This document shows, one piece after another, positions 4,072-58,534 of a stretch of DNA of 58,534 bases. Where the stretch lies: positions 1 to 58,534 of IMG/VR virus record IMGVR_UViG_3300017763_000017; one strand, written 5' to 3'. Under the pieces are notes generated by a model. The model was not told the DNA's origin. It worked only from the letters and a program-made list of their open reading frames with translations, and did no database searches. The first letter of the stretch is position 1. Every line of letters begins with the position of its first letter. Made by a program: the position numbers and the translations under genes. Source of the stretch: a virus (taxonomy: Duplodnaviria > Caudoviricetes).

Positions 4072-4737
4072 TTAAGTAAAAGTCCCGCCGAGTATGAATT
4101 CTAAATCCACTGATATATTTATATATCCCGTAGACCCAGATCCTTCGTTTGTAACACCAATAATAACGTTACTGCCCTGAACAAATTTGAGAGCATTAAT
4201 TCCTTCAATTGTAAAGGTAGGACCAGATAAGTCTACCTCGCCTCCAGATCCAGCAGGACCTTGTGGTCCCTGTGGTCCCGTATCACCTGTATCGCCAGTT
4301 GGTCCTATGGGTCCACCAGAAGGACCAGTATCACCTCTAGGACCCGGCTGACCATTTATTTCTACCCATTGGAGCGAATCTCCGTCACTCACATAAACAA
4401 AGAAAGATCCAGTGTCTTCTTCAAACCAAAAGTCACCAAGGTTTGGAGATGACGGTGGTGATGCATCAAAGGTTATAGCAGTTGCACTCAAAGAAAGTAT
4501 AGACCAATCCGAATTGGATATACCACCTTCTAGTTTGTAATATGTCTGGTCACCCAGAACATAAACCAACATACCTTCTTCCCTGCGATCAGACGGTATG
4601 TTATTTCTTGCAGTTGTATTATTTACAGTACGAAGTCCACCCAAACCAAATTCTGGTTTAGTCACAGGGAAAGTATCCGCCGTATCAGTAGGCGATATGA
4701 ACCCTCCTATTCTAACTCCACCCGTAATAATTGCCAT
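4072..4737 (-). CDS. Virion protein with short collagen-like segment
   Basis: GGLRTV..ARNNIP..RREEGMLVYV domain, GDFWFEEDTG..QWVEI module, Gly-X-Y run GPRGDTGPS..GPTGDTGDTGPQGPQGPA. Confidence 0.65.
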   Translation of the reverse strand: MAIITGGVRIGGFISPTDTADTFPVTKPEFGLGGLRTVNNTTARNNIPSDRREEGMLVYVLGDQTYYKLEGGISNSDWSILSLSATAITFDASPPSSPNLGDFWFEEDTGSFFVYVSDGDSLQWVEINGQPGPRGDTGPSGGPIGPTGDTGDTGPQGPQGPAGSGGEVDLSGPTFTIEGINALKFVQGSNVIIGVTNEGSGSTGYINISVDLEFILGGTFT

Positions 4738-5624
4738 TATGTGCTAACCTTTACTGATACTTCCCCTGCGAAATTGTTGGTAGATTCATATAGATGATAT
4801 ACGACATTTAATCCAAATGTATTCACATGACCAAAAGTTCCTCCATCAGTGAAAGGAAAGTTCAAATTGGTCCCAGTATCAGTAAAAGTTAAAGAGCCGG
4901 AAATTTCTTCTTCCGGTATCACAAAGTATGCTTTGTTTGCTGGAGATGCTGCAGCAAATGTGACCGTATAATTATTAGGTGTTGTTCTAAATGTATCTGC
5001 AAATCCTTGTCCTGTAAGACCAGAACCAGTAAATCCTGCACCAGTCTTGCCACTAAAGTATTTATACTTCCAAGTTAAATTTTGATTTCTCGTAGCATCA
5101 CTACCTTGATCCTGTGACCCCGATATAGTGAAGGTCAACGTAGTCGGCGATGTAAAATTATATGCCGAGTGTGTTATTCCCGTAGGGGAATCATCATAAT
5201 CTAATCCAGAAACTAATGTACCAACACTTTGATTTGCTGATATGGAAAGTGATCCCGAAACCCAATTTCCTGTAGGACCGGATGTATTCCATGTAGCGTT
5301 ATTAGTAGAGTTACCTGCAGTCTGTCCAACTTCATAAGAAGTGGAAAGTGCAGTAGAGAATGAAGTAAAACTAACCGCCTGATATGGATACAACAAACTT
5401 TCCAGAACCTGTATAGCATCAGTTCCGTTTGCCAAAGTTGTTCCCGCTTCAATTCCACCTACAGTTTCTGGAAAAGGATCATCTTGTCGAGTCCAAGTCG
5501 CCCCAGAACCGCCAGTTCCAGTACCACTTATTTTATCCCAAGCATAACCATTCCACTTCCATGTGATACCACTGAAAGTGTACTCGTCATTCGTTGCGGG
5601 CGATACTGGAAATAGTATTGTCAT
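4737..5624 (-). CDS. S/T/G-rich beta-sandwich virion protein
   Basis: N-terminal FPVSPATNDEYTFSGITWKWNGYAW module shared with 1-1694; GGAG RBS. Confidence 0.6.
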   Translation of the reverse strand: MTILFPVSPATNDEYTFSGITWKWNGYAWDKISGTGTGGSGATWTRQDDPFPETVGGIEAGTTLANGTDAIQVLESLLYPYQAVSFTSFSTALSTSYEVGQTAGNSTNNATWNTSGPTGNWVSGSLSISANQSVGTLVSGLDYDDSPTGITHSAYNFTSPTTLTFTISGSQDQGSDATRNQNLTWKYKYFSGKTGAGFTGSGLTGQGFADTFRTTPNNYTVTFAAASPANKAYFVIPEEEISGSLTFTDTGTNLNFPFTDGGTFGHVNTFGLNVVYHLYESTNNFAGEVSVKVST

Positions 5625-5633
5625 TTACTCTCC

Positions 5634-7079
5634 TTAGAATTCTACCCATAAATCTTCATAACGAGTAAAAAGCTTCGCAGTATCTGACTCTATCCACCTA
5701 TCTCCAGTAACAAAAGTTCCCGATGGTGCATTATCAGAAACATAGACATTGCTTCCAGCAGAACCACCAGCAGAAATCGAAACTCGTACACTCTTACCAC
5801 CAACCTTATTTAGTGAAACTCCAGAACCTTCAAAAATTAAATCTTCAGGATTTCTAACAAAAGCAACATCAGAGTCATTTCCATTTTTAATTGATGACAA
5901 TCCACCACCGCCACCATAAGATGCTGCAGTGATAAAATTGTTCATTAGTTTTTCATTTACGTTACCACCAGAGAGGAGTTTTTCAAAAAACTTCTTATCA
6001 ATTGTAAATAACCCACGATCTTCTTGATAAACTAGTGGGTACTTAGCCTTTACTATAGGAGATTCACCGTCCTCTCCCTTTGGTCCAGCAGGACCGACAG
6101 AACCTTGCAATCCATCAGTTCCATCAACACCATCTTTACCTTTAGATCCCCGGGGCCCCTTTGGACCTCTTTCTCCTGTAGAACCGCGTGGTCCAGCAGG
6201 TCCCCGTTCACCTTGTTTACCGGGAACAGAATGTCCAAGAGGACCTCGAGGACCTACCGGTCCTTTTGGTCCCGTGCTACCACGATCTCCTCTTTCTGCT
6301 GCTGTTCCGGGAATACCCCGCTCACCACGTTCTCCCTGCTCTCCTTTATCACCCTTCTCTCCTTTGGGTCCAGTTGGACCGTCAGCACCATCTTTTCCAT
6401 CTTTTCCATCTTTCCCATCTTTTCCGGGTTCTCCTCTAGGACCAGCATCACCACGATCACCTCTAGGTCCAGCAGGACCTTGGTCGCCTACAGGACCCTG
6501 CTCACCCGGAAATCCTCTAGGTCCAGCAGGACCAACTAATTTTTCTTCTTTGATTATTTCAGTTACATATTCTCTTTTTGTTATTTTATCTTCTTCAACC
6601 AAAATATCCAATAGATCATTAGAACTGACTTTTTCAGTTTCATCTATAATAATTTCCATACACTCATTGAATTTTTTCTTTGATCCACGAAGTGCAACAA
6701 CCTCAGAACCATCCTCAAGAAATATTATATTCGTACCTGCATCCAGAGCCTCAGACCTATCAAATTCACTCAAAGGACTTTCTTTGTATATCCTACCAGC
6801 AAATAAATTTGAAACTGGAGGACCTTTCCACCTATACGTTTTTAATTTAGTTTCGGTATATTCATGTAAATATTCATCATAGTCGGATCGTTTTCCTAAT
6901 AATTTAACCACTGCACCAGATTCAATTTTAAAATTCTTTCCTTTAGAGAAAAAGTTAAATCCCCCATCATACTCAGATAAATTAATAGCTTCAACGTGAA
7001 TCAGATTACTCTCCTCTATAATCTGATTCTTCTGTATGGAATCATTTATGGTCTTTTTTACAATCCATTTAGACATCAT
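5634..7079 (-). CDS. Collagen triple-helix repeat protein
   Basis: Roughly 50 Gly-X-Y triplets (about 6065-6535) with two interruptions; C-terminal GDRWIESDT..WVEF module. Confidence 0.85.
   Translation of the reverse strand: MMSKWIVKKTINDSIQKNQIIEESNLIHVEAINLSEYDGGFNFFSKGKNFKIESGAVVKLLGKRSDYDEYLHEYTETKLKTYRWKGPPVSNLFAGRIYKESPLSEFDRSEALDAGTNIIFLEDGSEVVALRGSKKKFNECMEIIIDETEKVSSNDLLDILVEEDKITKREYVTEIIKEEKLVGPAGPRGFPGEQGPVGDQGPAGPRGDRGDAGPRGEPGKDGKDGKDGKDGADGPTGPKGEKGDKGEQGERGERGIPGTAAERGDRGSTGPKGPVGPRGPLGHSVPGKQGERGPAGPRGSTGERGPKGPRGSKGKDGVDGTDGLQGSVGPAGPKGEDGESPIVKAKYPLVYQEDRGLFTIDKKFFEKLLSGGNVNEKLMNNFITAASYGGGGGLSSIKNGNDSDVAFVRNPEDLIFEGSGVSLNKVGGKSVRVSISAGGSAGSNVYVSDNAPSGTFVTGDRWIESDTAKLFTRYEDLWVEF
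6390..6425. repeat. Tandem 9-bp repeat x4 encoding (GKD)4 in the collagen domain
   Basis: atcttttcc atcttttcc atctttccc atcttttcc. Confidence 0.9.
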
Positions 7080-7654
7080 GAGTCATCCCAAAATCGTCCG
7101 AATCCATTTACTCGATACATGTAATAATTAGTACCACCATCAATGGACCAGATCTTCCACATATGTATTCCGCCAGTAAGACCGTCTGTAGCATCACTAG
7201 ACAGTGATCTGTCCATATGCACAGTTCCGGTGATTCCACTATTATTGAGACCAACAATATTAAAATCTGTCGGGTTATCTGGATTATCAACAATTAGTGT
7301 TGCTTCCATAAATGAATTTGTTGTTGGGGGATTTAAAAATCTAACCGTACTAGGAAAAGTTCCAGTAGAAGCTGCAAATCCAATAAAATGAATATCAGAA
7401 ATGCTTAGATATGCATCATATGTAAGTCCAACAGATGTCAAACCCTGACCTAGTATGTTTACGTTAGGATATTCTTTTTCTACCTTCGTATCAGAAACCC
7501 AAGCACCAAGTCTACCATCAAAAAACCATTCCTGAGTAAACCCCTTATTTAGTCCATCAGGATAAGTGCAACCGGATGTCCATCCAAAAGGATAAACATC
7601 ACATGTTGCACCATCAACACCGTTTATTGCAGGAAATCTAATTGGATCCGTCAT
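7076..7654 (-). CDS. Hypothetical virion-associated protein rich in G-x-T
   Basis: 192-aa ORF, first gene after a late-type promoter, stop overlaps next start (ATGA). Confidence 0.55.
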   Translation of the reverse strand: MTDPIRFPAINGVDGATCDVYPFGWTSGCTYPDGLNKGFTQEWFFDGRLGAWVSDTKVEKEYPNVNILGQGLTSVGLTYDAYLSISDIHFIGFAASTGTFPSTVRFLNPPTTNSFMEATLIVDNPDNPTDFNIVGLNNSGITGTVHMDRSLSSDATDGLTGGIHMWKIWSIDGGTNYYMYRVNGFGRFWDDS

Positions 7655-8992: not shown

Positions 8993-10066
8993 TTAAACTT
9001 CAATCAGTTCTTTTAATTTATTTATATCTACTTTCCAGCTGGAATTTATACCCCCAAATATCGAAAGAGCATTTTTGTGTGTCTCTACTTCTTCTTTTCT
9101 GTCTACAAATTCTGTTTCATTGAAATGAATCAAGTCGGTCCTGTTCATGGCAAACTCCAACCTTCTATTAACATCAAAGAACTCAGGGCTGTTTATCGAC
9201 AACACCCTACAATCCGGTCTACAAAATAGAGCATTTGACATCCCACCACCAATCGGTCCTGCTACAAAATCTGCATTACGAAACAATCCAATTTTATCTT
9301 CCATACACAAGTCTTCAGTGAAAACTTCTTCGAATCCGTTATGAATAAAAAATTCCGCTACTTCATCTTCGTTAACACATTTCCTCTGTTGTGTATAATC
9401 AGTTCCGATATTTTCATTCCTTTTCTTTGTCCACGTTCTTCTTGAAACATAGACTTTCTTCACATCGGATCTAGTTCCCTCCATCGAATCTAGTATTTCG
9501 TATAAAGCAGGATGCGGTGGATCCAGAGACATTCTATTGTGAGTTAAAGAGGAGCCAACAAAAACTCTAAAGTAAGACACATCATCTCTCAAAAAAACTA
9601 AATCATTTTTTGCTATACCTAATAGTTCTAGAGTTTCATATACGAATGGATATAGATCATCTTTTCCTTCGGGGGGACTAATTAACAATTTCAAATTTGG
9701 AATTTGTTTTTTAAGATCGAAGTAGGAGTATAAGTAAGGAACCGTATCATACAACCAGTGAAAATAATTAGCACAATTGTACACAAAGTAAAAAACCGGT
9801 GTTGTAATCGATCTAACATCCCAAAGTCTTTTTTCAGATGTTTCATATTCCATTGTGTCTTCATAGACGGTTCCCCTACCCAAAGACATAAATTTTTCTA
9901 TAGTGGGAAGTAAAAGTTCATCGTTGGTGTGCAATAACGGTTGGGGGTAATTTAAAGAAAAACCCTCCACTGTACAATCTCTAAACTCACCAATCTTTAT
10001 GTTTCTTTTTTCGGAAACAGTTCTTATGGATCCGGATTGGCTTTTATCCCAATAATCTATTTTCAT
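8993..10066 (-). CDS. Glycosyltransferase family 61 (DUF563)-like protein
   Basis: NYFHWLYD..P.L, KVYVSR, R..VNEDEV, LF.NADFVAGP.GGGMSN.LF. Confidence 0.8.
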   Translation of the reverse strand: MKIDYWDKSQSGSIRTVSEKRNIKIGEFRDCTVEGFSLNYPQPLLHTNDELLLPTIEKFMSLGRGTVYEDTMEYETSEKRLWDVRSITTPVFYFVYNCANYFHWLYDTVPYLYSYFDLKKQIPNLKLLISPPEGKDDLYPFVYETLELLGIAKNDLVFLRDDVSYFRVFVGSSLTHNRMSLDPPHPALYEILDSMEGTRSDVKKVYVSRRTWTKKRNENIGTDYTQQRKCVNEDEVAEFFIHNGFEEVFTEDLCMEDKIGLFRNADFVAGPIGGGMSNALFCRPDCRVLSINSPEFFDVNRRLEFAMNRTDLIHFNETEFVDRKEEVETHKNALSIFGGINSSWKVDINKLKELIEV

Positions 10067-10781
10067 AATTCAATAAATCCTCTGGTGTTCCCCAGCAATG
10101 ATACTCATCAACATCGAATATACTCATGTCTAAATGACCTATACTATTAAAAATATTATCAATGTAATATTCACCATTACTCTTGATACCATCTTTGTAT
10201 ATCCTAGAAACCCCATCTAAAAAATCACCGGCACGTCGGAAAAAAAACGTACCCACTATGGCACGATTGTTAAATGGATCATCGAAAAAATTTTGTTTTA
10301 CATGTGTTTTTGTTAACCTAACGCCCGATGTTTCTAACCAACTATAAGAACTTGGATTGTTGGAAAACGCAGCGTTGTTTATGGTTGACCAGACAACAAC
10401 ATCAGAGCCTTTCTTCACACTCTCGTACTTTTTATTGGACCACTCTAAACCATAATCACAACAACTTATTGTGATTGAATCTTCTTCATGTATTGACGAT
10501 TGTAAAATACCAATTTCAGCCGTACAAGCTTGTCCCATAGTTGTTTTATCTAAAATAACAAACTCTGATTCTGGATAATAGTCCTTTATAATTTCGTCTA
10601 TAGAATGTTCTTCTATATGTTCTGTTCTACAGACAAAGACATGGGAGTCTGCTTCTGGAAGACAAGAAACGGCTTCTATAATCATGGGTTTGCCGTTAAC
10701 TTCAATTAAAGGTTTTGGTGTTTCTACACCAACACCAGAGAACCTAGAACCTTCACCTGCTAAAGTTATTAGATTTATCAT
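10044..10781 (-). CDS. Sugar-phosphate nucleotidyltransferase (NTP_transferase family), divergent copy
   Basis: LAGEGSRF...PKPLIEVNGKPMI, T.GQACT, NGEYYI, WGTPEDL. Confidence 0.85.
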   Translation of the reverse strand: MINLITLAGEGSRFSGVGVETPKPLIEVNGKPMIIEAVSCLPEADSHVFVCRTEHIEEHSIDEIIKDYYPESEFVILDKTTMGQACTAEIGILQSSIHEEDSITISCCDYGLEWSNKKYESVKKGSDVVVWSTINNAAFSNNPSSYSWLETSGVRLTKTHVKQNFFDDPFNNRAIVGTFFFRRAGDFLDGVSRIYKDGIKSNGEYYIDNIFNSIGHLDMSIFDVDEYHCWGTPEDLLNYENRLLG

Positions 10782-11236
10782 TTGAACGACTCCACATAAT
10801 CAGAACAAACTCCATAGACCTTTGTTTCTTCCCAACCTAGTAATTGTTCTTTCGACAAAAGTGGTATTATACACTTTTCATTTATCATATCTAAATCGTG
10901 AGCCCATATTAACCCATTACTTATCATAGCATATCTTTCATTTTCATGAAAGAATATCCTAAAGCCTGTATTAAGTAGATAACTAAATGCTTGAAAATTC
11001 TTACAATGAATCCACACACGGTCCTTTATGTTTTCTAAAAATAACAGGGGAACCATCCAATCCGGTTTATCGTGACCCAACCAAATACCACTGTCCCACC
11101 AATGAACATCGATCTCAACATCATATCCAGCAGTTATTGCCTCCTGAATATATGATGGAGAATTTTCTCTATCCGGATTAACTCCGTTCAAATTTCCTCT
11201 ATGGGATATCAATTTTATTTTTTGTTTTGTCATCAT
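10778..11236 (-). CDS. Glycerophosphodiester phosphodiesterase (GDPD)-like small protein
   Basis: ISHRGN..G..ENSP.YI..AI..GYDVEIDV..LGHD..WIHCKN..GVCSDY; start placed at the MM codons 11236/11233. Confidence 0.8.
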   Translation of the reverse strand: MMTKQKIKLISHRGNLNGVNPDRENSPSYIQEAITAGYDVEIDVHWWDSGIWLGHDKPDWMVPLLFLENIKDRVWIHCKNFQAFSYLLNTGFRIFFHENERYAMISNGLIWAHDLDMINEKCIIPLLSKEQLLGWEETKVYGVCSDYVESFK

Positions 11237-11498
11237 AAAAAATATCGTAATATGGTTTATCACATCTCAGTTGATGATACTTAACGCCCCAACTTTTTAA
11301 CTGTTTCTCTGTATGATCGAACCAATCAATTCCACTTCTACTTCCCCTAGCTGTCCAATAAACTATTTGGTTACCCTCGTCAAATAGATGATTGATCTTC
11401 TCTATTATTTTTTTCCGTGGAACGGATCTGTGGTAGTCTCTCGGATTATCTGGCGTATCACAGATGGTTTCATCAATGTCAACAAAGATCACTTGCAT
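11199..11498 (-). CDS. Small HAD-superfamily phosphatase (EcbF/BcbF capsule-phosphatase-like)
   Basis: DIDETIC motif I, WTARG motif II, KPYYDIFYDDK motifs III/IV. Confidence 0.85.
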   Translation of the reverse strand: MQVIFVDIDETICDTPDNPRDYHRSVPRKKIIEKINHLFDEGNQIVYWTARGSRSGIDWFDHTEKQLKSWGVKYHQLRCDKPYYDIFYDDKTKNKIDIP

Positions 11499-12306
11499 GG
11501 TATTCTTTCCAGTAACGATAACACTTTACTAGGTCTTCCTCTGAGTTCACTTGTCCCTTGGTCAAAATACTTACCCATGACTCAAAATTTTCTACTTCTT
11601 CCGGTGTTCCCATTACAGTTGCAAATGGGGTATCATAATATCCAACCCGCAAACCATCTCTAACGAAAAGATTATAAACGAGCGTAACGTAATACTCACC
11701 ATTATAACTAACATTTTCTTCTATTGCAACGTCAAAATACTTCTTTATATCCTTCCCTTTAGAAAAATAATAAGTTCCTGTTGATGCGTGTTCGTTTATG
11801 GGATCATCGGTGTAACACTCTTTCTCTTTTATTTCTCGTACCAATCCATCTTTGGTTTTCATAAAAGCCATCTTGGTATGATTTAAACTGTGAGGGTGGA
11901 ACCCACTATGAGAAATCACACACCCATCTAGTTCATTATTCTTAATGTGCCGTATAAAATCGTTTCTGTCCCAAAGGTATGGGTTATCACAATATGAAAC
12001 TATAACCTCTTCATCATCCTCTATATGATCATATACCTGTTTCACACTATAAACAGGCCCTAATTTATGAGGAGGCATAGAAACGATTTTTGCATCAGGA
12101 ACAAGACCAATCAACACTTCTCGCATGTTTGTATTTTCGAGGTGATCGTCGTTACACACAAAAACATACTCATCAGTCGAGGAAAACATTTCAAGAATAT
12201 ATTCTATAATCATCTTCCCATTTACCTTAATCAGAGGTTTGGGATCAGAATAACCCTTGTCGATAAATCTCTGTCCAGATCCAGCCATTGGTATGATAAT
12301 TTTCAT
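11479..12306 (-). CDS. Sugar-phosphate nucleotidyltransferase (NTP_transferase family)
   Basis: IIIPMAGSGQRF..GY..PKPLI.VNGK, YCD, IKEK, ASTGTYYF, NGEYYV, MGTPEE. Confidence 0.9.
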   Translation of the reverse strand: MKIIIPMAGSGQRFIDKGYSDPKPLIKVNGKMIIEYILEMFSSTDEYVFVCNDDHLENTNMREVLIGLVPDAKIVSMPPHKLGPVYSVKQVYDHIEDDEEVIVSYCDNPYLWDRNDFIRHIKNNELDGCVISHSGFHPHSLNHTKMAFMKTKDGLVREIKEKECYTDDPINEHASTGTYYFSKGKDIKKYFDVAIEENVSYNGEYYVTLVYNLFVRDGLRVGYYDTPFATVMGTPEEVENFESWVSILTKGQVNSEEDLVKCYRYWKEYHASDLC

Positions 12307-13706
12307 AGTACACCCATTCTATATTTTTCCTCTTCCATACTTAATAATTTCTCAACTTCATTGTCACATAAAAATCTTGGAGTTAGTCCAACATCACCCT
12401 GTATGTATGTCATATACTGGTTTAAATTTTGCATTTTGTCTTTGAGGATGACCGCATCAGGAAACAGAAAACCAACTGGTTTGTCGAATTCTACTTTCGA
12501 AAAAGTTTTAAATGCCTTTGAATTTTTAATTAACCACTCTTTACACAACTGATTCACACGAAGAGAGTTATCAAATACTTCAATAAAAGATGAACCACTA
12601 CAAATGAGTCCATGATTTTCTAGTAATATAATTTTATTTTCCTGACTAATTTTACCCAACATCAAAGAAATGTCAAAAATATTTGACAAGGATTCACCCG
12701 GAGTAACATATGGAACATAGTCGTAATCATACTCTTTAAGAATTTTTGAAATAATTTCCTCGGATTGTTCGGAACAAAGTATAGTATTCAAATAAATCGG
12801 ATGGGTATGGAAGACAACAGGCCACTTAATCTTGGTATGTAATTTTACTTCCATAGATGGTCGTTCCCGACTCTCGTCAATAGAACAACCATTAGAATCA
12901 CATGCACTAAAACCATCAAGCATAAGAACCTCACTCATGTCTCTGCCGGATGATGTTATGATAATTTTATCCTCGAACTTATAAGAAACATTACCACCAC
13001 CATGTTGAACGAGGTCATATTCAAAAGAAGTCTTCTTACACAACGAAAGAAATTCTCTGTGCATATCGTACAATCTCTTAACCCGTTCAAGTAGTTTCAA
13101 TGACTTATCCGTTTGTGCAGTATATTCTAGATGAACTGTTCTGTCTTTTTTCTCTTCGAACCTAACTACGGCATCAGCATTTTCTTTTTGAGGTTGAATG
13201 TATAATAGTTCATCTTTTTCTCTTCTATCCAAGGTATCTTCAACCTGTTCAACGGTATATCCTCTTTTTTGTGTATCGCGGTTCATTTTCCACTGACGTT
13301 TAAGTCCCTTGTCAGTTTCAACAAAAATTTTTATATCCGATATTTCATTTACATCACCAAACAAGGCATGAAGTCCCTCATAAACAATATATGATTTTGG
13401 TTCAATCAACTCTGGAGGATCAAACTTTCCAGTATCATGGTTATACCTGCACCGTTTTATTGGGTTGTTGTTTGACAGAGAAATCAAATCTTGATATCCA
13501 CCTTCGATATTATTAGACTCGGGATTTAAATGTGTTGTATTCTTCCAGTTTTCATCGTTTCTTTCCCACAAATGTAAATCATCACCACACAGATTTACAA
13601 CTTTGTCAGGACCAATCACTAAAGAAATCAATTCTGACAAAGTTGTTTTTCCAACACCAGAGCTACCAGAGAGTGTTACTATCGTATTCAATGAATGCTC
13701 ATCCAT
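12303..13706 (-). CDS. Phosphoribulokinase-like kinase fused to class II aldolase/epimerase domain
   Basis: GSSGVGKT, DDLH..ER, YNH.TG.FDPPE, EGLH, WK..RD..KRG, YIQPQK..AD (PRK motifs); then GGGNVS, ITSSG, RPSME..LH, HTHP, LENHGL (class II aldolase Zn site). Confidence 0.85.
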   Translation of the reverse strand: MDEHSLNTIVTLSGSSGVGKTTLSELISLVIGPDKVVNLCGDDLHLWERNDENWKNTTHLNPESNNIEGGYQDLISLSNNNPIKRCRYNHDTGKFDPPELIEPKSYIVYEGLHALFGDVNEISDIKIFVETDKGLKRQWKMNRDTQKRGYTVEQVEDTLDRREKDELLYIQPQKENADAVVRFEEKKDRTVHLEYTAQTDKSLKLLERVKRLYDMHREFLSLCKKTSFEYDLVQHGGGNVSYKFEDKIIITSSGRDMSEVLMLDGFSACDSNGCSIDESRERPSMEVKLHTKIKWPVVFHTHPIYLNTILCSEQSEEIISKILKEYDYDYVPYVTPGESLSNIFDISLMLGKISQENKIILLENHGLICSGSSFIEVFDNSLRVNQLCKEWLIKNSKAFKTFSKVEFDKPVGFLFPDAVILKDKMQNLNQYMTYIQGDVGLTPRFLCDNEVEKLLSMEEEKYRMGVL

Positions 13707-14350
13707 TTCCCATCGTATTCAAAAACTCTATTTTCTCTTGACCACTGACGTACTCCCATTACAAATTCATCATTACTTTGATATAAAGTTTTTTTGAAGT
13801 TGAAGGGTTTTTTAATAACACCAACGTCTCTAATACTAGCATCTAAAGTATCATGTGGATTTTTTTCTAGGAACGTCTTTTCCTGCGTTGTGAAAATTTT
13901 TCTAAAGATATCAGGGGAAGTAATACCAATGTTGTCAAATATACCCCAAGGTAAATCCGGTGCATAGTAAGTGTTATGTTCCATAATACTTGGTATTTCT
14001 ATACTATTCAACTCACAGTCAATTCGATGCCTAATAATACAATCAAACGAATCTAAACCCTCTACCATATCCACATGTTTACACAGGATCTCGATACAAC
14101 GAAACATCCTATAATTGTTACCATTATGGTTTCCTATAGTTTCCAGTATGGGATCGATAGAAATCAGTTCTATGTTTAAGTCACTGTTGTCTATGAGAGT
14201 TTTGAGTTTTTTATATTCTTCAGTTTCATATGTGAGGGCATAATGTGTACAATCATAATCAGATAGGGTTGACAGAGTGGTTTTGATATTTTCAAAAACA
14301 CGATCCGCATTAGGTCTAATTACGCCTGTTATGATACTACAAATTTTCAT
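13688..14350 (-). CDS. Hypothetical protein, possibly glycosyltransferase-like
   Basis: MKICSIITG.IR start and FDCIIRHRID motif; inside the glycan island. Confidence 0.45.
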   Translation of the reverse strand: MKICSIITGVIRPNADRVFENIKTTLSTLSDYDCTHYALTYETEEYKKLKTLIDNSDLNIELISIDPILETIGNHNGNNYRMFRCIEILCKHVDMVEGLDSFDCIIRHRIDCELNSIEIPSIMEHNTYYAPDLPWGIFDNIGITSPDIFRKIFTTQEKTFLEKNPHDTLDASIRDVGVIKKPFNFKKTLYQSNDEFVMGVRQWSRENRVFEYDGKWMSIH

Positions 14351-14377
14351 TACCCATTTAACCCCATGTGTAAAATA

Positions 14378-14974
14378 TCAACAACTTGAAAAATGCAATT
14401 TTGGTCTACCATCATTTGGGTTCTCTGTACGTATTAGTTTTAGATTACACAGGGAACATATTTCAATTATTTTATTTTTTTCTTTTTCGTAATCTGTATC
14501 ATCATGTTGTTCTACTTCTAGATGATTTATTTTTAAATTACTAGACAACCCCTCTAGTATAGGAACTTCATATCCTTCTGTATCTAGATAAAAATGTTCA
14601 ACTGTTGAAATATCTAAAGAGTCTAGAATTTCACTTATAGTAAATGCAGGCACTACAATAGAAGATCGTGAATAATTAGTTGGGTTATTTGTTTGTTGCA
14701 CCGAACCCTCCAAACAATTCATTAAACTCCAATGTTTGTGTTTATACAATGTAACAAATTTCTTTTTATATGAAGGAGAAACTAAAGCACAATTAAAAAA
14801 TATAGTTCTTCCGTTATTTCGATTTCTAACACACTCAGAAAATACAACTGGATCGGGTTCTATTAATATACCAACATAATCAGGATTGTCAATTAAAGAA
14901 ATACTTCTACTTTGATCAATTCCATTATTTGCACCACATTCAATATAAATTTTTTTATTTTCGTATAATGTCAT
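14378..14974 (-). CDS. FkbM family O-methyltransferase
   Basis: IECGANNG..QS, GILIEPDP, LDTEGYEVPILEG. Confidence 0.85.
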   Translation of the reverse strand: MTLYENKKIYIECGANNGIDQSRSISLIDNPDYVGILIEPDPVVFSECVRNRNNGRTIFFNCALVSPSYKKKFVTLYKHKHWSLMNCLEGSVQQTNNPTNYSRSSIVVPAFTISEILDSLDISTVEHFYLDTEGYEVPILEGLSSNLKINHLEVEQHDDTDYEKEKNKIIEICSLCNLKLIRTENPNDGRPKLHFSSC

Positions 14975-15777
14975 CTTAAATTATCCACAATAGTTTTTGT
15001 TACAGTAAAAGAACCTTCAGGTGAAGCGTTCCTATTATACCAGTCCTGTCCCGCATCGTGCATGTCTTGCCACTGACTCTCACTGACTGAATCGATTAGT
15101 GGTTTGACTTGACTGGGATAATCCACACGAAGGAAATGAACTCCTTCTTTCATTGGTTCATGGTATGTATTATCAACTTCAGTAGCAAAGAGTGGGACGA
15201 CACCCATACCAAGAAGTTCGATCTCCCGATTGCACTTGGGACCATACCCAGCAAGACATAGTCCAAACTTCGAGTGTCGTAGTTTTTCTAGGTACTCTTC
15301 TTTTGTAAATGGATAGTGGTCTGGTCCCGGTTTGTCAACAGGACAATTAAAGAGTTTTATACCCGATCGTTCCCAGTCTTTGTTTTTTCTGTTCTGATTC
15401 TGAACATTATTTTCAACCTTACCCAAGAAGATAGATTCTATGTCCCGATCTGTATAACCCAACAACGGAGTTTTTCTTGCTTCCATTAGGCGGCGAGGAC
15501 TTCTAGCCCAGAAGATCCAAGGATGACAATTTGGATGCATTGGGACAGTATTACCAAAAATACCATGACGGAATTTGGGAATATGTCGATCATCTAATCT
15601 GGGAAAATCGTATAGTAATACATCACCACACTCTTCTACCCAACAAAAACAGTCTGGACTATCTTGCACTTCACATAGACCAAGTTCTTCCCATATATCA
15701 ACTAGTTCTCTGAACGTATCTCCACAATGACCGTAGCATGTACCATTAGCATCAGTATTACCTTTTAGAATTTTCAT
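14971..15777 (-). CDS. Exostosin (GT47)-like glycosyltransferase
   Basis: EYLEKLRHSKFGLCLAGYGPKCNREIELLGMGVVP matches the GT47 C-terminal motif. Confidence 0.7.
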   Translation of the reverse strand: MKILKGNTDANGTCYGHCGDTFRELVDIWEELGLCEVQDSPDCFCWVEECGDVLLYDFPRLDDRHIPKFRHGIFGNTVPMHPNCHPWIFWARSPRRLMEARKTPLLGYTDRDIESIFLGKVENNVQNQNRKNKDWERSGIKLFNCPVDKPGPDHYPFTKEEYLEKLRHSKFGLCLAGYGPKCNREIELLGMGVVPLFATEVDNTYHEPMKEGVHFLRVDYPSQVKPLIDSVSESQWQDMHDAGQDWYNRNASPEGSFTVTKTIVDNLR

Positions 15778-16207
15778 TTATTACTCCTTGATATTCTAAA
15801 ATATCAGTTGTTGAATATTTACCAAGTCTAGGAAAGAAACTAACCTCATCCACAAATTCAGATCCAATGACTGTCTGGTGTTTATATTCTTCTCCTACTA
15901 CCATAATATCTGGTTTATGTACTTCACTAATCAATCCCTTAAGTTCTTCATCAGTAGAAAACACATCAACAACATCAATCAGTTTCAATGCCCTTAATAT
16001 TTCTACTCTATCTCCAATAGTATTAAAGGGTCGGTCATTTCCCTTCAAAGATTTTACTCTTTCATCAGAATCTACACCAACAACAACCACACCTTCGGGT
16101 CCAGCAAGTTCAAAGCATCGTTTAAACATTTCAATATGACCACGATGTAAAATATCAAAACACCCATTGGTCCAAACAACTCTACTTTTTAAATCAGAAA
16201 AACTCAT
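15758..16207 (-). CDS. Cytidylyltransferase family (RfaE/HldE domain II or TagD-like)
   Basis: TNGCFDILHRGH (HxGH), VGVDSD..V..LKG.DRP.N, YSTTDI. Confidence 0.9.
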   Translation of the reverse strand: MSFSDLKSRVVWTNGCFDILHRGHIEMFKRCFELAGPEGVVVVGVDSDERVKSLKGNDRPFNTIGDRVEILRALKLIDVVDVFSTDEELKGLISEVHKPDIMVVGEEYKHQTVIGSEFVDEVSFFPRLGKYSTTDILEYQGVINENSKR

Positions 16208-16719
16208 TTATTTTCCTTTTCACCAAAAACCATAAAACTATTATTTAAATCAACACCAGATTTAAATATATTACAATAACCATTGTCTTTCATATAATCA
16301 TAAATTATATCAGAAGTGAATATATTTAAATGTTTTTTATTATTCCACGGTCTCCAATATTCCTGACTATAGTCGGGTAAGTATAAAAATAAAACTCCAC
16401 CACCTTTCAATTTACTAAACCAATATTCCATTGTGTCAACCCACGATGGAATATGCTCTAAGCAATGAGAAGAAAAAATATAATCTAAATTTTCATACGG
16501 AAAATTAGAAGCATTATATTCATTAATAGCGGGATCAACTAGATTAGATCCGGGAAATGCCCATTCCTTTTTAGCACACCCTATATCTACCCCGATTCCT
16601 CGACATACATGTTGAGCAAAAGGTATTGCAAATTTAGATGCATTACCCTCACTCTGAAATTTTGGATATAGTTTATTTTTAAATTCTATTGTTTCAATTG
16701 TCATTTTATAATATTCCAA
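16204..16719 (-). CDS. Class I SAM-dependent methyltransferase
   Basis: GVDIGC, DYIFSSHCLEH, LK.GGVLFLYLP. Confidence 0.85.
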   Translation of the reverse strand: MEYYKMTIETIEFKNKLYPKFQSEGNASKFAIPFAQHVCRGIGVDIGCAKKEWAFPGSNLVDPAINEYNASNFPYENLDYIFSSHCLEHIPSWVDTMEYWFSKLKGGGVLFLYLPDYSQEYWRPWNNKKHLNIFTSDIIYDYMKDNGYCNIFKSGVDLNNSFMVFGEKENK

Positions 16720-17390
16720 TTATTCTTCCATATAGTTTTAGTCCACGGTATATTGTTTCTAACATCCACAAAGTATTTCTTCTTGTCTTTAAATTCTTTT
16801 ACTGTTTCTATGAAATGACAAAAGGAACTATCTATGCAGTAAATTTCACTTGATTCATTTGCAATTTTATACCAATCAAATATATTATAACCGGACATGG
16901 GTTCTACTACAATATGTTTATCTTGGAAAGATATCAACTTACCCGAAGAACCAGTATCATGTACTAAGATATATGGTGTTTCACTCACCTTTAATTCAAA
17001 TAATGAATTTTCTTTCTCTAAGTTTCTAGTAAATGATAAATTCCACCTGTTTTCATATGAAACAGAAGATAATTTATATTTTGCTTCTACAAAATTAGAA
17101 GCATATTCGGTATTCATATGATAACTATTTACTTGACTTCCCGGAAATCCAAAACTTAAATCTATTACCTTATCATAATCACCAGTCATTTTATAGCACT
17201 CAGAAACACAATTACCTATACCAGAAAAAATTTCAATTGGTTTAACGTAATCTATATTGTTAAATGTATCTGAGTATTCAGAAAGAACCGGCCAGTAAAC
17301 CTCATGACCAAGATCTTTATAGAACTTAGCAATCGGCAAACAGATAAGAATATCGCCGAGTCTACCCGGCTGTATGATTAAAATTTTCAT
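16701..17390 (-). CDS. GT-B fold glycosyltransferase, GT9-like N-terminus
   Basis: MKILIIQPGRLGDILICLP, YDKVIDL, IDSSFCHF. Confidence 0.65.
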   Translation of the reverse strand: MKILIIQPGRLGDILICLPIAKFYKDLGHEVYWPVLSEYSDTFNNIDYVKPIEIFSGIGNCVSECYKMTGDYDKVIDLSFGFPGSQVNSYHMNTEYASNFVEAKYKLSSVSYENRWNLSFTRNLEKENSLFELKVSETPYILVHDTGSSGKLISFQDKHIVVEPMSGYNIFDWYKIANESSEIYCIDSSFCHFIETVKEFKDKKKYFVDVRNNIPWTKTIWKNNWNIIK

Positions 17391-17412
17391 CACTCACCAA
17401 TAATATAGCACA

Positions 17413-40590: not shown

Positions 40591-40601
<11 letters not shown>

Positions 40602-41331
40602 ACTCAATATCTCCAATACTAAAGTCTAATGTACTACCACTAACTCCGGTAGTCTGTGTAGTTTGTGAAAACTCATCGTTCAACCCTGATATCTCAATCA
40701 TACTAGATGAAGAATCTACAATAACAGTTTCGTTTTTAATTTCAGTATATAATCTGGTTTTGCATGTAAATGCAAATGTAGATGCAACAATTCTTCTATC
40801 TAAAAAGTTTCCATCAAAAGTTTCTTGTACTGCAACATTACCTAATGTTATAGGAACATCTAGTTTAGAGTCAACCGCATTAAAATTGAGAGTAACTATA
40901 AATTCTGGAGAAAAGTATGGAACTATTTGCTCAACAATTTGTAAATTATCGTCCATATTTCTAGAAAAAGCAAAAAGTGTAAATCCGACGTTGTATGGAA
41001 CTTCTTGATACATTGTCTGTGTGCCTTCACCCGCAACAGAATATCTTCGTTTATTTAATTTATTTAAATGTCTAGTAGGATCGTAATCTATACCGGTCAT
41101 TTCAAAACCAAGTCTTGGTAAAGAAACTTCAATTTTAGTTTCATCACTAATACCACTTTGCTGTTCTAATCTTTGTATAAACTTTTCTTTCGATGAATAT
41201 ATTAGAGGAACTTTTAATTTTGAATTTATAGTTTCATTTGCATTTTTTCTTTCGACATAAATCTCGTTAAATAAAGATCCAAATGCAACGGTTAGTTTTC
41301 TTAAAGACTCGTTGTAGAAATGTCCAAACAT
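40591..41331 (-). CDS. 15: Tail sheath stabiliser / completion protein gp15
   Basis: FY.E..RK....FG.LFN.I, VPL.Y..KEKF, LPR..FE, QIVEQI.PYF.P. Confidence 0.95.
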
Positions 41332-42270: not shown

Positions 42271-43074
42271 TTATCCCGTCATGAAATCAACTGGTAGTTC
42301 GTACTGCGAGTAGAACTTCTGTTCTATTTCATCAATTTCTCGTTCTGCTTCTGACTGTATTTGTCCGCCACGAAGAACAACTCCACCCGGCATTTGTACG
42401 CCGTCATACTTAGCAAGATTAGATCCCCACTGTCTTTTTATAAGTGCAGTGGTATATTCTTTGAGAAGACGATCATTAAATATTTCGGTGTATGTGTTTT
42501 CGTTAAGTGCAGCATAGGCTTCTATTACGATATACTCGTCAGTTGCAATTTCACTCCACTTCATGTCAATGTGAAGTTTATTTGTAACCTTACTAAAACG
42601 AATTGCCTTTTCTGGTTGGAAAAAGTCTTCGATCATATTGATATATCTCTTAGTAGAATCATAAGAAGCAAGTCCCTGAGAGACTGCTGCGTTGAGACCT
42701 CTGTTGACACCGAAATAATCGGAAAGTGCTAGTTGATACCTAACGTCAAACATATTAATGTTTGAGAATTGACCAAACTGAAACACCTTTAGAACTGTCA
42801 GGATATCAGAACCTCTGGGTCCATCTCCAGTAGGTCCATTTACAGGTCCAATATCATTGGTAAGAATGTATTTTTGTTCTTTGTCTGCTTCGGTGATCTT
42901 ATGTGAGAAAAATACCCTTTCCACTCCGTCGAAGTGTCTTTCTCTAAAGAACTCTAAGGCATCGTCCAGTCTGTCTTCTGCTTGTGTGTAATCTACGTTA
43001 ATTTCGATAACAGGAGCGCCAAGACGCTTGAACGCATATTCTATAAGTGTTTCTCTGGAATTGGGATGGGCCAT
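42271..43074 (-). CDS. 13: Neck protein gp13
   Basis: LI.YA..RLGAPVIEINVD, HFDG, LKEY.TALIKRQWG.NL.KY.G.Q.PGG. Confidence 0.96.
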   Translation of the reverse strand: MAHPNSRETLIEYAFKRLGAPVIEINVDYTQAEDRLDDALEFFRERHFDGVERVFFSHKITEADKEQKYILTNDIGPVNGPTGDGPRGSDILTVLKVFQFGQFSNINMFDVRYQLALSDYFGVNRGLNAAVSQGLASYDSTKRYINMIEDFFQPEKAIRFSKVTNKLHIDMKWSEIATDEYIVIEAYAALNENTYTEIFNDRLLKEYTTALIKRQWGSNLAKYDGVQMPGGVVLRGGQIQSEAEREIDEIEQKFYSQYELPVDFMTG

Positions 43075-46447: not shown

Positions 46448-47398
46448 TTAGCACCCTGTTATACCGTGGTTTGGACTTGAGTCATATGGCATGTATAAAA
46501 ACTCGTATATATTTATACTTCCGAACGACGCTCCAGCAGGAGTAAGAACTCCATTTGGATGGGTATATGTCGGCATATCAGCGGTGTTTGCTGCAATCGC
46601 TCTCGCATGTGAACTACCAGAACATCCGGATGTATATCCTATAGTACCAGTATCTCCTTGATTATAAACCAAGTAATTTCCTATAAGTGGATTTTCAAAC
46701 GAAATTCCTCGTGACAAAGCAGTAGAAAATCCAAACTCTGCTAGCCTTTGTTCTATTCCAGAATCTTCGCTCGACTCCGTTCTTTCACTTCCTAAAGTTG
46801 AGTTAGTACTTATTGTAGTGTTTATTCCTACAGGTTTCATGTACTTATAAGCTTCTTCATAGACTGAAGTATCTTGCATTGTTCCAGAAATTTCAAGATT
46901 AATTTCTTGGTTTAATAGAGAACCTGTTACAGTAACACTTTCAACTTCTGGAAATGCTCGCACAAAGAAAAGAGCAATGCCCTCTGGTGTTCCCTTTTTG
47001 GAGATTATATCTCTTCTGAAATTTTTCAAAAACTCTTCTTCTTGACCTGCGGTGAGTCCGAGTTGAGGAATAAATGAGTTCGTGAAAGCAGATGTAGTTT
47101 CTGGTATTATATTGCTTATATCCTGAAGACTTTCTATGCTTTCAGTGTATAGTCCAGATTCTTTTGTGCAGTACAACCAATCAAAATAGTGCTGAAAGAA
47201 TTTTACAAAATTACTATTTCCTGCATAGTGTTCATCTACCAACCAATTTGGAACTACGGTTTTCACATCAAATGGTACGTTACACGATTCTGTAATAAAA
47301 TCATTTGCTGCATCTGGAGTAACTGCATTTAAAAACGATCTAACTTTTTCACTGTTAGTCAATTCATTTTGGTCTGTTGTTATAAAACTAGGATCCAT
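46448..47398 (-). CDS. Baseplate wedge initiator gp7-like, very short
   Basis: FV.F...Y.DWL, KKGT..GI..FF, Y..KPVG motifs; follows gene 6. Confidence 0.6.
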   Translation of the reverse strand: MDPSFITTDQNELTNSEKVRSFLNAVTPDAANDFITESCNVPFDVKTVVPNWLVDEHYAGNSNFVKFFQHYFDWLYCTKESGLYTESIESLQDISNIIPETTSAFTNSFIPQLGLTAGQEEEFLKNFRRDIISKKGTPEGIALFFVRAFPEVESVTVTGSLLNQEINLEISGTMQDTSVYEEAYKYMKPVGINTTISTNSTLGSERTESSEDSGIEQRLAEFGFSTALSRGISFENPLIGNYLVYNQGDTGTIGYTSGCSGSSHARAIAANTADMPTYTHPNGVLTPAGASFGSINIYEFLYMPYDSSPNHGITGC

Positions 47399-47409: not shown

Positions 47410-48537
47410 TTATTCGGGGGCTACTGCGCCCGTGCCATACTCAAATACAATTCCAACTATACATTTTTCATTAAGCGCATTTGTTGCTTGATTTTTTTCA
47501 TCTTCCGAAAGTTCCGGGGTTGTTGTGTAAAATACTTTACCTAACTGTGGACTGGTAAGTTCGTCTCCACCAGTTACAGTGACATTATCGAATGAGGTTA
47601 CATATCCTCTTTCAAGTAAAAATGCTTTTACGTCATCCTTGGTAACCACTCGTGATTGGGAAGAAAATACTCTGGGTATTGCAAACTTTAGGCTTTCAAT
47701 AGATGGTTCGTTTGTTCCAGTTGAAGATAATCCAGAAGATCCGATGTTGGTTATATTAGAAAGGGTGGTTGTGAAAGAGCTTACGCCATTACCCGAAGTT
47801 CCAGATGGGACAACATATGTAACTCTGATATTAGCTGTACTTTGTAAATTAGCAGAGTTAAAAATACCTGTATTTGCGTCATATACACCAGCAAACATTA
47901 CATCATATCCTGTCGCTCTTCTTTCAAGAAAGCATACTTTGGATTGTTGTGTAGTGTTTGGTTCTACTGATGTTGCAACTGCATAATCTACACCATCTAC
48001 TGTTACCTTTAGTGATTTAAATTCTATATCGGTTTCTGGTATAAACACCGACTGTGTTGTTGTATCTAAAGTTAATTCTGTATTTCTAATAATTCGTATT
48101 CCCTCGTAGACATCAAATGTTGACGGAGTATCTGCGGTCAATATTACTGGTTTGATATTATAGAAAAATTTAACTTCACCATTAGTTTTTTGACCTCGAA
48201 ATTGTGTATATGCAGGAATAGTTTGATTGGTACTAGATGTTATACTTAAAGTTGCAACTGAGGAAGTTTTGCCGGGTACGACATAACCTTGAACTTTTGC
48301 GTGTGATATTATAGATTCTAACTTTTGAGCAGAATCCAAAAACATTTCATTAACTAAAATATTCTGAAACAGAATTTGATAAAATGTATTGTATGATAAG
48401 AGGTCTATTATTGTTGATAATGCAGATCCTTCGAAGTTATAATCAGTAAACTCATTTTTACTTTTAATGTAAGTAACAAGTTCATTTTTTATTTGATCAA
48501 ATTCAAGACTCTTTAGATTAATGTTTGGTGTTGACAT
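47410..48537 (-). CDS. 6: Baseplate wedge protein gp6, short (375 aa)
   Basis: LEFD.IK..L..Y......FTDYNFEGS.LS..IDLL.YNT, NEMFLDSA, ES.K..IPR.F..Q.R.VT..D. Confidence 0.9.
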   Translation of the reverse strand: MSTPNINLKSLEFDQIKNELVTYIKSKNEFTDYNFEGSALSTIIDLLSYNTFYQILFQNILVNEMFLDSAQKLESIISHAKVQGYVVPGKTSSVATLSITSSTNQTIPAYTQFRGQKTNGEVKFFYNIKPVILTADTPSTFDVYEGIRIIRNTELTLDTTTQSVFIPETDIEFKSLKVTVDGVDYAVATSVEPNTTQQSKVCFLERRATGYDVMFAGVYDANTGIFNSANLQSTANIRVTYVVPSGTSGNGVSSFTTTLSNITNIGSSGLSSTGTNEPSIESLKFAIPRVFSSQSRVVTKDDVKAFLLERGYVTSFDNVTVTGGDELTSPQLGKVFYTTTPELSEDEKNQATNALNEKCIVGIVFEYGTGAVAPE

Positions 48538-56036: not shown

Positions 56037-56053
56037 TTAAGGTATTGCAGCTT

Positions 56054-57558: not shown

Positions 57559-57571
57559 ATTTTGCCTTTCC

Positions 57572-57865: not shown

Positions 57866-57871
57866 ATAATA

Positions 57872-58108: not shown

Positions 58109-58121
58109 TTTTGTCTTCCTT

Positions 58122-58150
58122 ATTCTAGCAGTGAATATAAAAAATGTCAA
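58122..58150 (-). promoter_or_regulatory. Sigma70-type early promoter
   Basis: TTGACA-17 bp-TAGAAT with extended TGn -10. Confidence 0.75.
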
Positions 58151-58187
58151 CTTTAATATATATACTAGTAATCAATCGGAGAATATC

Positions 58188-58534
58188 ATGTCCATAACCG
58201 TAAACACTGCAGGTGGAACTGCCTGTCTTTCAACAGAGTTTGGTACTTCGCCTGTAGGTGCAACATGTCATCTACCGCTCAATAAAATTGTATGGGGAGA
58301 CGATAGTGTTTCCCATAAAGTAAACGAAACATACCCACTTCCAGTACAGATAATGGAAATTACAGGTGAAGCAATTGCATTCACTGGTAACATGGGTGCA
58401 AGTGGGTCATTTCCAATAGAAAACACAATAAATGGTTCTTCTTTGGAATATATTGCAATAGCAGGAAGCACCGATGGTAACACCCCAGTAGGTGTAACTG
58501 GTAACATTACAATACAAAACTTTCCCGGTGGAAA
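58188..58534 (+). CDS. Probable virion protein, partial (runs off the right end; not in ORF track)
   Basis: GGAG RBS, upstream TATATATA (58157-58164); MSITVNTAGGTACLSTEFG..KIVWG..V..TYPLPVQI..GVTG open to the end. Confidence 0.65.
   Translation, partial: MSITVNTAGGTACLSTEFGTSPVGATCHLPLNKIVWGDDSVSHKVNETYPLPVQIMEITGEAIAFTGNMGASGSFPIENTINGSSLEYIAIAGSTDGNTPVGVTGNITIQNFPGG

Follow-up and report, generated by a model that had tools for sequence, protein, structure and literature searches.

Threonine at the Y position of collagen triplets carries O-glycans in BclA of Bacillus anthracis and in the cuticle collagen of Riftia. GmaR of Listeria monocytogenes is a family 2 glycosyltransferase (GT2) with tetratricopeptide repeats (TPR) that attaches O-linked N-acetylglucosamine (O-GlcNAc) to flagellin; it also acts as an anti-repressor, and its substrate is not known to have a Gly-x-Thr (G-x-T) register. 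In Clostridioides difficile, the glycosyltransferase gene sgtA presumably adjoins bclA3. SgtA (358 aa; a GT-A domain and four TPR) transfers beta-O-GlcNAc onto Thr of the GPT triplets of BclA3 in vitro, and Ser is also accepted (PMC7157674). Here we analyze 58,534 nucleotides of DNA from a tailed phage (Duplodnaviria, Caudoviricetes; IMG/VR record IMGVR_UViG_3300017763_000017, positions 1 to 58,534; hereafter the window), in which a gene for a 426-aa glycosyltransferase of similar architecture, GT2-TPR, adjoins a collagen-like gene and in which exterior virion proteins hold about three to four times the expected number of G-x-[ST]-G sites, frequently in tandem.

The likeness to the SgtA/BclA3 pair is one of architecture as described: in both enzymes a GT-A domain is followed by TPR repeats, although GT2-TPR is larger and has a longer helical arm. 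The setting is different, since here the pair is viral, in a marine T4-like phage, with candidate sites in non-collagen virion proteins and a variable sugar island. Where BclA and Riftia collagen form long uninterrupted collagen helices, most core sites here are single or double triplets in loops. The best whole-length fold match is to SunS and ThuS (PDB 7msn and 7msk), which likewise join a GT-A domain to a helical, TPR-like peptide-binding domain. They differ in sequence (13-18% identity) and in substrate, being glycocin S-glycosyltransferases that modify Cys/Ser of small bacteriocin peptides, and no gene for a small bacteriocin peptide of this type is present in the window. Among phages, the mycobacteriophages Che8, Corndog and Myrna encode glycosyltransferases that O-glycosylate their own capsid and tail-tube proteins at C-terminal tails (Freeman et al. 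2023, as cited in PMC12363180 and PMC12619734). These are siphoviruses of actinobacteria with other enzymes, and their tail tube is glycosylated whereas the tube here is without the motif; the passages of these two papers that bear on the question report no G-x-[ST]-G motif. In the passages of the literature found, phage-encoded virion glycosylation in tailed phages is established only for mycobacteriophages, and the search returned no paper joining collagen-like phage tail fibres with Thr O-glycosylation.

We called 71 open reading frames (ORFs; longest-ORF, greedy) and compared motif counts with those expected from whole-protein shuffles, using this window alone as the control set, the genome being known to that extent. 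Across all ORFs, G-x-T occurs 163 times against 106 expected and G-x-S 130 times against 116. The G-x-T excess, 1.5-1.8 times over composition, falls in a fibre block (3-7654, 8 ORFs; 71 vs 39.3, z 5.8) and a structural block (30888-54684, 25 ORFs; 69 vs 46.0, z 3.8), and is absent from the sugar island (11 vs 8.7), the replication genes (11 vs 10.7) and non-virion genes taken together (24 vs 22). The excess of the structural block is conservative, because a few proteins of that set are interior or non-virion ones. Removing the 476-aa tail-fibre protein (Table 1) from the structural block leaves a core set of 24 proteins, in which G-x-T still stands at 51 vs 37 (z 2.5). In an unbiased scan of one-gap residue pairs, G-x-T ranked second of 226 in the fibre block and second of 364 in the structural block, behind P-x-G in both. 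The excess is limited to a gap of one residue (gaps 0 and 2-5 are near 1.0), and it persists after shuffling inside 30- and 15-residue blocks and is therefore not explained by local composition. A first-pass annotation, made from the letters and ORF translations alone, had proposed G-x-T/S as a candidate O-glycosylation sequon enriched in structural over non-structural ORFs. Set against shuffles, the enrichment appears where it was expected, in the fibre and structural blocks, and not in the island or replication genes, although the enriched block begins at base 3 rather than at base 4072.

The signal takes its sharpest form as G-x-[ST]-G. G-x-T-G is about fourfold over expectation in both the fibre block (23 vs 5.6) and the structural block (14 vs 3.6), and G-x-T without a following Gly is still 1.3-1.4 times over. 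With both hydroxyl residues counted, G-x-[ST]-G reaches 29 vs 10.8 in the fibre block and 22 vs 5.8 (z 6.5) in the 24 core proteins, in which G-x-[ST]-[GA] stands at 33 vs 10.8 and the tandem form G-x-[ST]-G-x-[ST] at 10 vs 0.9. A core excess of 22 vs 8.0 (z 5.2) outlasts shuffling inside 10-residue blocks. The controls G-x-A-G, G-x-V-G, G-x-D-G and G-x-N-G are near 1x in the core proteins, and two permuted orders, G-x-x-[ST]-G and [ST]-x-G-G, are at expectation. Non-virion ORFs hold 5 G-x-[ST]-G sites against 2.9 expected, small counts compatible with a weak excess. The enrichment is genuine; it is specific to residues with a hydroxyl group and is limited to proteins of the virion. Codons at the motif sites match general usage, which places the signal at the protein level; a DNA-level cause was rejected on this ground.

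Every motif string quoted in the first-pass annotation is present: LGLTGST and GPTGPT in gp14, NGPTG in gp13, AGAT, SGAT and GGTTG in gp23, SGPSGAT in gp18, GVSGST in gp15, GDTGTIGYTSGCSGSS and GIT in the baseplate wedge-like protein, and the strings of the hub protein, whose sites lie in acidic linkers (SGPSGPSGDS, SGVSGPSGD, AGATGPT). The clamp loader gp44, cited there as a contrast, indeed has a single G-x-[ST], in its P-loop GTGKTS. Alignment with T4 and cyanophage Syn1 assigns the core sites to variable loops, to C-terminal extensions (gp23, gp15) and, in gp14, to an extra C-terminal domain. In gp23, GGTGG, AGAT and SGAT lie in a low-complexity variable loop and GGTTG forms a C-terminal extension. 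An AlphaFold2 model of gp14, of mediocre confidence (predicted local distance difference test, pLDDT, 69.9), places all five G-x-T threonines (186, 189, 207, 210 and 279) in coil as assigned by DSSP. From these comparisons the core-protein sites appear to lie in variable loops, tails and linkers. The earlier proposal had placed them in exposed loops; its further suggestion that these loops had acquired the sequon is doubtful, because the clade has long had both motif and enzyme.

We followed the motif through the relatives of the window, using the best 80 loci of more than 593 relatives matched by a gp14 scan of IMG/VR, a set in which motif counts are not phylogenetically independent. G-x-[ST]-G stands at 122 vs 11 in gp15 (52 sequences), 64 vs 8 in gp13 (60 sequences), 59 vs 15 in gp18 (23 sequences) and 53 vs 19 in gp14 (61 sequences), and the baseplate wedge-like family has G-x-T at 2.87 times expectation. 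The interior proteins show nothing of the kind (tail tube 5 vs 4, portal 3 vs 3), nor does a 151-aa protein (1 vs 6). The control G-x-[ADNV]-G is at 0.3-1.3x over the relatives, and at 0.3-0.9x in gp15, gp13, gp18 and gp14. In the alignments of relatives the motif occupies 19 different columns in gp15 and 21 in gp18, most of them rare, and the C-terminal tail of gp15 is otherwise free-running, with a G-x-T-G-type core nearly always kept. The motif thus marks exterior virion proteins and not the tube or portal. The first-pass annotation had called it virion-wide, which holds for the outward-facing proteins and fails for the tube, the portal and several baseplate proteins, none of which shows an excess.

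Over all ORFs of these relatives, G-x-T stands at 1.46x. Every locus with at least 1500 aa of structural protein is above 1.2x; closer relatives range over 1.2-2.4x and are mostly at or above 1.4x. Two long records of relatives hold both the enzyme and the motif excess. Among the relatives examined, whose contigs are fragments, we found no loss of the enzyme inside the clade and no enzyme-less relative. G-x-T is near expectation in 33 structural proteins of T4 (95 vs 85, 1.11x) and in 13 of Syn1 (95 vs 85, 1.11x); G-x-[ST]-G in T4 is 16 vs 14 over all 33 proteins, and no excess is seen in the core proteins of T4 (9 vs 7.1) or of Syn1. The excess is therefore not generic to T4-like phages.

GT2-TPR scores just under the Pfam GT2 cut-off (7.8e-5, 23.1 bits against 23.3). 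Its AlphaFold2 model (pLDDT 89) contains a GT-A domain over residues 1-175, with strands and helices alternating over residues 7-175, and ten TPR-type helices over 187-390. Profile matches to consensus TPR proteins (2e-5 over 186-310) and Foldseek matches to the TPR domain of OGT agree with this division, and the motif DADD (D99-A100-D101-D102), of the DxD type that binds metal and nucleotide sugar in the GT-A fold, is invariant in 33 sequences. In a Foldseek search of the PDB, SunS came first (1.1e-14, 410 columns, template modelling (TM) score 0.54) and ThuS next, followed by the TarS/RmlT/TarP fold class at 7e-7 or worse. The SunS/ThuS superpositions span about 400-410 columns (TM 0.54-0.55) at a root-mean-square deviation of 13-14 A, so the domain orientation differs, and the NCBIfam SunS model gives GT2-TPR 28 bits against a cut-off of 350. 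By sequence, the best match among solved structures is GmaR (1.6e-7 with a single sequence, 6.9e-9 with a profile), then SunS and ThuS. On the strength of the model and these matches, GT2-TPR looks like a protein or peptide glycosyltransferase. The first-pass annotation had named it as the best candidate for the modifying enzyme, a choice that the fold match to SunS/ThuS, the sequence match to GmaR and a conserved position at the edge of the fibre genes all favor.

That position emerged from 80 viral loci carrying the enzyme at 51-87% identity, of which 55 had enough sequence in the 5-kb downstream flank and 68 in the upstream flank. Downstream flanks encode a collagen-like ORF in 43 of 55 cases and hold 1031 G-x-[ST]-G sites against 300 expected; upstream flanks encode one in none of 68 cases and hold 45 sites against 47. 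In two more distant relatives, the upstream sugar genes are almost all different, yet the enzyme (64% and 51% identity) is kept, and in both a small G/T-rich protein and collagen-like proteins come after it. The clade thus keeps a gene module: a variable sugar-building block, a conserved GT-A and TPR glycosyltransferase, then collagen-like and other fibre genes. The content of the island is swapped, and the enzyme stays linked to the fibre genes. The enzyme has 1903 homologues, and each of the best 120 is similar to it in length and shares at least 56% identity with it; a search of 50,697 phage records (E<=1e-3) returned only 11 homologues, none in a cyanomyovirus or T4 relative. The unrelated jumbo phage Tunturi_5 encodes a 34%-identical homologue 3.7 kb from a 1469-aa tail fibre with GATGPTG-type repeats (G-x-[ST]-G 74 vs 7.3). 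Among bacterial loci with a homologue, mostly from spore-forming Bacillota, 14 of 80 have a BclA-like G-x-T collagen within 6 kb (a raw count in which two pairs overlap). The T4-type late-promoter-like octamer TATAAATA lies before GT2-TPR and is kept there in the relative L081, and not in L085 or L087. Its seven matches in the window, against six expected, are not above chance, although all seven are on the coding (minus) strand and six lie 6-67 nt upstream of start codons: those of the 481-aa structural protein at 2615-4060, GT2-TPR, ORF 21388-22116, the second tube-like gene, gp22 and ORF 45031-46443.

In the fibre block, the 192-aa protein directly downstream of GT2-TPR has nine of its 20 Thr in G-x-T against 2.4 expected, a count reached in 0.1% of 2000 shuffles. 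The manual counts of the first-pass annotation, for this protein and for the 295-aa G/T-rich protein (10), are confirmed. The 192-aa protein matches no Pfam or PHROG family, and its Atlas neighbors, all below 0.9, are leads only; its position is taken in L087 by a 188-aa relative (27% identity; G-x-T 4 vs 1.0) and in L085 by a 145-aa G/T-rich ORF (5 vs 1.9). The fibre or collar protein contains about 13 collagen triplets in a row, GDTG, GPTG, GDTG and GDTG among them, and has G-x-T at 8 vs 3.8 with six G-x-[ST]-G sites. Long (Gly-X-Y)n runs, as in BclA, are thus present in this protein and in the collagen-like tail-fibre protein. A Thr-dominated Y position is absent from both (3 G-x-T in the collagen-like protein, 4 of about 13 triplets in the other) and is found elsewhere, in the Tunturi_5 fibre (G-x-T 79 vs 30.5) and in the collagen-like homologue of L087 (10 vs 4.1). 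The partial large fibre protein has G-x-T at 22 vs 12.2, three internal repeats and two NGxTG motifs; the 481-aa structural protein is not enriched (11 vs 9.0). The internal repeats take the form GAGMTLxGSTLGIDPTA...VAG[IV]SSDGGIT, and a motif S-[FIV]-N-G-x-T-G-[DA]-[VI] is common to three fibre proteins (3-1694, 1719-2390 and 43590-45020). Fibre-block proteins are 59-100% identical to those of L081, as expected for diversifying host-recognition genes.

The island upstream of GT2-TPR is 93-100% identical to that of L081, mostly replaced in L085 and L086 (where one ORF matches the island's 268-aa protein at 31%) and wholly replaced in L087. Its GT61 protein has no relative among solved structures at E<=1. 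One island gene fuses a phosphoribulokinase/uridine-kinase-like domain to a class II aldolase/epimerase domain. The distant record G001 has an otherwise different island; besides GT2-TPR, the 268-aa protein is the sole island gene of the window to find a clear homologue there (31% over 266 aa), the S-adenosylmethionine (SAM) methyltransferase having only a marginal match (26% over 110 aa).

Our favored reading, to which we give about an even chance of being right, is that GT2-TPR primes Thr/Ser of G-x-[ST]-G on the fibres and on at least some exterior core proteins, and that the variable island builds the remaining glycan. The TPR arm of the enzyme would hold G-x-[ST]-G segments that are unfolded or extended, and the enzyme would place the first sugar on the Thr/Ser hydroxyl in the cytoplasm, late in infection, much as SgtA does on the GPT triplets of BclA3. 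Island enzymes would then supply and extend a strain-specific, probably methylated, glycan, and the outcome would be glycosylated fibres and a particle exterior partly decorated with glycan. The particle is probably sugar-coated. A broader version, which we put forward only tentatively, holds that a minimal sequon G-x-[ST]-[GA], read by a phage GT-A/TPR enzyme, is distributed over capsid loops, sheath, neck, baseplate and fibres, the whole outer surface, in an abundant uncultured marine T4-like clade, with swappable islands giving strain-specific coats. Several observations weigh against the favored reading. About half of the G-x-T excess is G-x-T-G, a share that fits ordinary collagen periodicity, and G-x-D-G (14 vs 3.3) is just as over-represented in the fibre block. 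The long collagen-like protein has only three G-x-T (GPTG, GSTG, GSTG), which is what composition predicts. T4, which has no such enzyme, shows enrichment in its fibres gp36 (z 3.9) and gp37 (z 2.5), and G-x-[ST]-G is mildly above expectation in Syn1 (28 vs 16.5, z 2.7), with no cyanomyovirus among the phage records holding the enzyme. Thr conservation against L081 is hardly better in G-x-T (62 of 71, 87%) than elsewhere (160 of 201, 80%), the distant enzyme-carrying record G001 reaches only 1.28x in core proteins, and the non-independence of the counts over relatives tells against the reading as well. Finally, the GmaR sequence match is limited to about the first 65 residues (3-66), and the late-promoter motif is weak.

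Some of these points suit a structural explanation, in which G-x-[ST]-G is a lineage-specific turn, flexible linker or short collagen-like/polyproline-II unit, and the island and GT2-TPR act elsewhere, for example on a host surface polysaccharide or another protein. The register of G-x-T-G is that of collagen, P-x-G is the top-ranked pair, many sites sit in the Gly/Ser linkers of the hub, and T4 fibres and, mildly, Syn1 show an excess without this enzyme. We consider this explanation somewhat unlikely, since the order-specific excess outlasts 10-residue local shuffles, Ala, Val, Asp and Asn at the same position are not enriched in the core, and the T4 core has no excess; moreover, the nearest folds of the enzyme are peptide glycosyltransferases with a TPR arm, and chance would have to account for its fixed place before the fibre genes. 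A narrower alternative accepts the enzyme and confines it to the fibres: GT2-TPR would act on the adjacent collagen-like and fibre proteins, as SgtA does on BclA3, and sites in the capsid, sheath, neck and baseplate would be structural rather than substrates. Gene linkage does join the enzyme to fibre genes and not to core genes, Tunturi_5 and the bacterial loci link its homologues to long G-x-T collagens only, and distant enzyme-carrying relatives show weak core enrichment (1.2-1.3x). We nevertheless find it unlikely that the fibres are the only substrate, because the core proteins keep their single-site and tandem excess without the fibre protein, because Ser/Thr alone are enriched at that position in the core, unlike generic collagen periodicity, and because the motif is kept in the free-running gp15 tail and divides exterior from interior proteins.

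A more distant explanation leaves the protein motif unrelated and assigns the island and the glycosyltransferases to hypermodification of phage DNA, as in T4 and in cytosine hypermodification pathways. DNA-glycosylating phage GT-A enzymes are described as widespread in viral metagenomes in the passages of bioRxiv 10.1101/2023.12.21.572611 used here, and the window does contain a DNA-methylase-like gene. The island, however, has no 5mYOX, thymidylate-synthase-like or C5-methyltransferase gene (in the 58.5 kb of known genome, distant partners being possible), and neither TPR nor tetratricopeptide occurs in the main text of that preprint. The DNA-type enzymes in the same passages match TarP best, whereas the match of GT2-TPR to TarS/TarP is about seven orders of magnitude poorer than its match to SunS/ThuS. 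We regard DNA as the target with very little credence, and return to protein priming by GT2-TPR as the favored reading.

The features of the window are collected in Table 1. Pfam, PHROGs and NCBIfam assign it a T4-like gene content with nearly all genes on the minus strand, by which it is identified as part of a compact T4-like myovirus. Read along that strand, baseplate and hub genes (54225-45031) precede the 476-aa tail-fibre protein, followed by gp13, gp14, gp15, gp16, gp17, a short gp18, gp19, gp20, gp21, gp22 and gp23; then a second tube-like gene, UvsY, UvsW, gp47, a SET-domain gene and gp46; then the DNA-methylase-like gene, gp45, gp44, gp62 and regA; and finally the sugar-building island (17393-8993), GT2-TPR and the Gly/Thr/Ser-rich fibre-type block (7654-3) with its collagen-like protein. 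A near-identity DNA search with 20 kb of the window against phage records returned only short gp20 and gp23 matches and no annotated close relative. The nearest cultured phages are cyanomyoviruses, at only 35-40% identity in gp14 and about 58% in gp23, and the clade is therefore an uncultured one.

Other departures from T4 and Syn1 were seen among the core genes. The sheath protein gp18 has 398 aa against 659 in T4 and 635 in Syn1; in the alignment most of the N-terminal and middle domains are gone and the C-terminal core is retained. The last approximately 40 residues of the portal gp20 form a Pro/Ala-rich tail, AAAAPPPGMLPPPEAPAPAPPQA, missing in T4 and Syn1. Two genes match the same tail-tube family, and the one after gp23 occupies the place of gp3 in Syn1. 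The SET-domain protein between gp46 and gp47 is a possible lysine methyltransferase.

Table 1. Coordinates of the features discussed, with family assignments and motif sites (motif counts are observed vs expected).
Feature	Position	Strand	Assignment and sites
Large fibre protein, partial	3..1694	-	564 aa, then contig end; 1077 aa in L081
Tail-fibre N-terminus-like protein, 223 aa	1719..2390	-	phrog_20242 2e-6; NGETGDI motif; G-x-T 8 vs 3.0
Structural protein, 481 aa	2615..4060	-	phrog_697 1.7e-7
Fibre or collar protein, 221 aa	4072..4737	-	Collagen 7e-4; PHROG tail fibre 2.9e-11
G/T-rich protein without known family, 295 aa	4737..5624	-	G-x-T 10 vs 5.6; five G-x-[ST]-G sites
Collagen-like tail-fibre protein, 481 aa	5634..7079	-	PF01391 8e-26; PHROG tail-fibre families up to 1e-37
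Protein without known family, 192 aa	7076..7654	-	directly downstream of GT2-TPR
GT2-TPR glycosyltransferase, 426 aa	7689..8969	-	candidate priming protein O-glycosyltransferase
Variable sugar-building island	8993..17393	-	GT61, two sugar-1-phosphate nucleotidyltransferases, phosphoribulokinase (PRK) and class II aldolase fusion, FkbM methyltransferase, cytidylyltransferase, SAM methyltransferase, ORFs without assigned function
GT61 protein	8993..10066	-	within island
Late-promoter-like octamer TATAAATA	9019..9026	-	50 nt before GT2-TPR start codon (octamer starts 57 nt before)
PRK/aldolase fusion	12303..13706	-	PF00485 8.9e-36; PF00596 4.3e-20
Island protein, 268 aa	14971..15777	-	no known family; G-x-T 4 vs 0.9
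DNA-methylase-like protein, 523 aa	22113..23684	-	C-terminal N6/N4 DNA methylase domain PF01555 8.6e-7; N-terminal 380 aa without family
SET-domain protein	26156..26773	-	PF00856 3.8e-6
Second tube-like protein	30888..31409	-	phrog_45
gp23 major capsid protein	31476..32891	-	PF07068 2.4e-136
gp20 portal	35145..36719	-	
Tail-tube family protein	36735..37265	-	phrog_45
gp18 sheath	37269..38465	-	sites GFSG, GPSGAT
gp15 tail terminator	40591..41331	-	GVSGST in hypervariable C-terminal tail
gp14 neck protein	41331..42266	-	GLTGST and GPTGPT in C-terminal domain loops
gp13 neck protein	42271..43074	-	NGPTG in variable loop
Tail-fibre protein, 476 aa	43590..45020	-	phrog_4492 2e-29; G-x-T 18 vs 8.5; six G-x-[ST]-G sites
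Baseplate wedge-like protein	46448..47398	-	sites GDTG, GCSG, C-terminal GITG
Baseplate wedge subunit	47410..48537	-	phrog_219 7e-67; sites GTSG, GSSG
Hub or tail protein, 830 aa	49840..52332	-	phrog_350; seven G-x-[ST]-G sites

The GT2-TPR enzyme family is very common in marine metagenomes. Even if the motif were purely structural, it would still be a clean lineage-specific sequence signature of exposed virion segments. If the broader version of the favored reading is true, many virions in the ocean would be coated with glycan, and a single short motif would be enough to tell from sequence which positions are coated. A short acceptor motif that can be read from sequence would provide a compact enzyme and tag pair for glycoengineering. 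It would also let ocean-phage glycans and their positions be tested directly, and with them the possibility that variable islands tune host range, particle stickiness, grazing and recognition by host defences.

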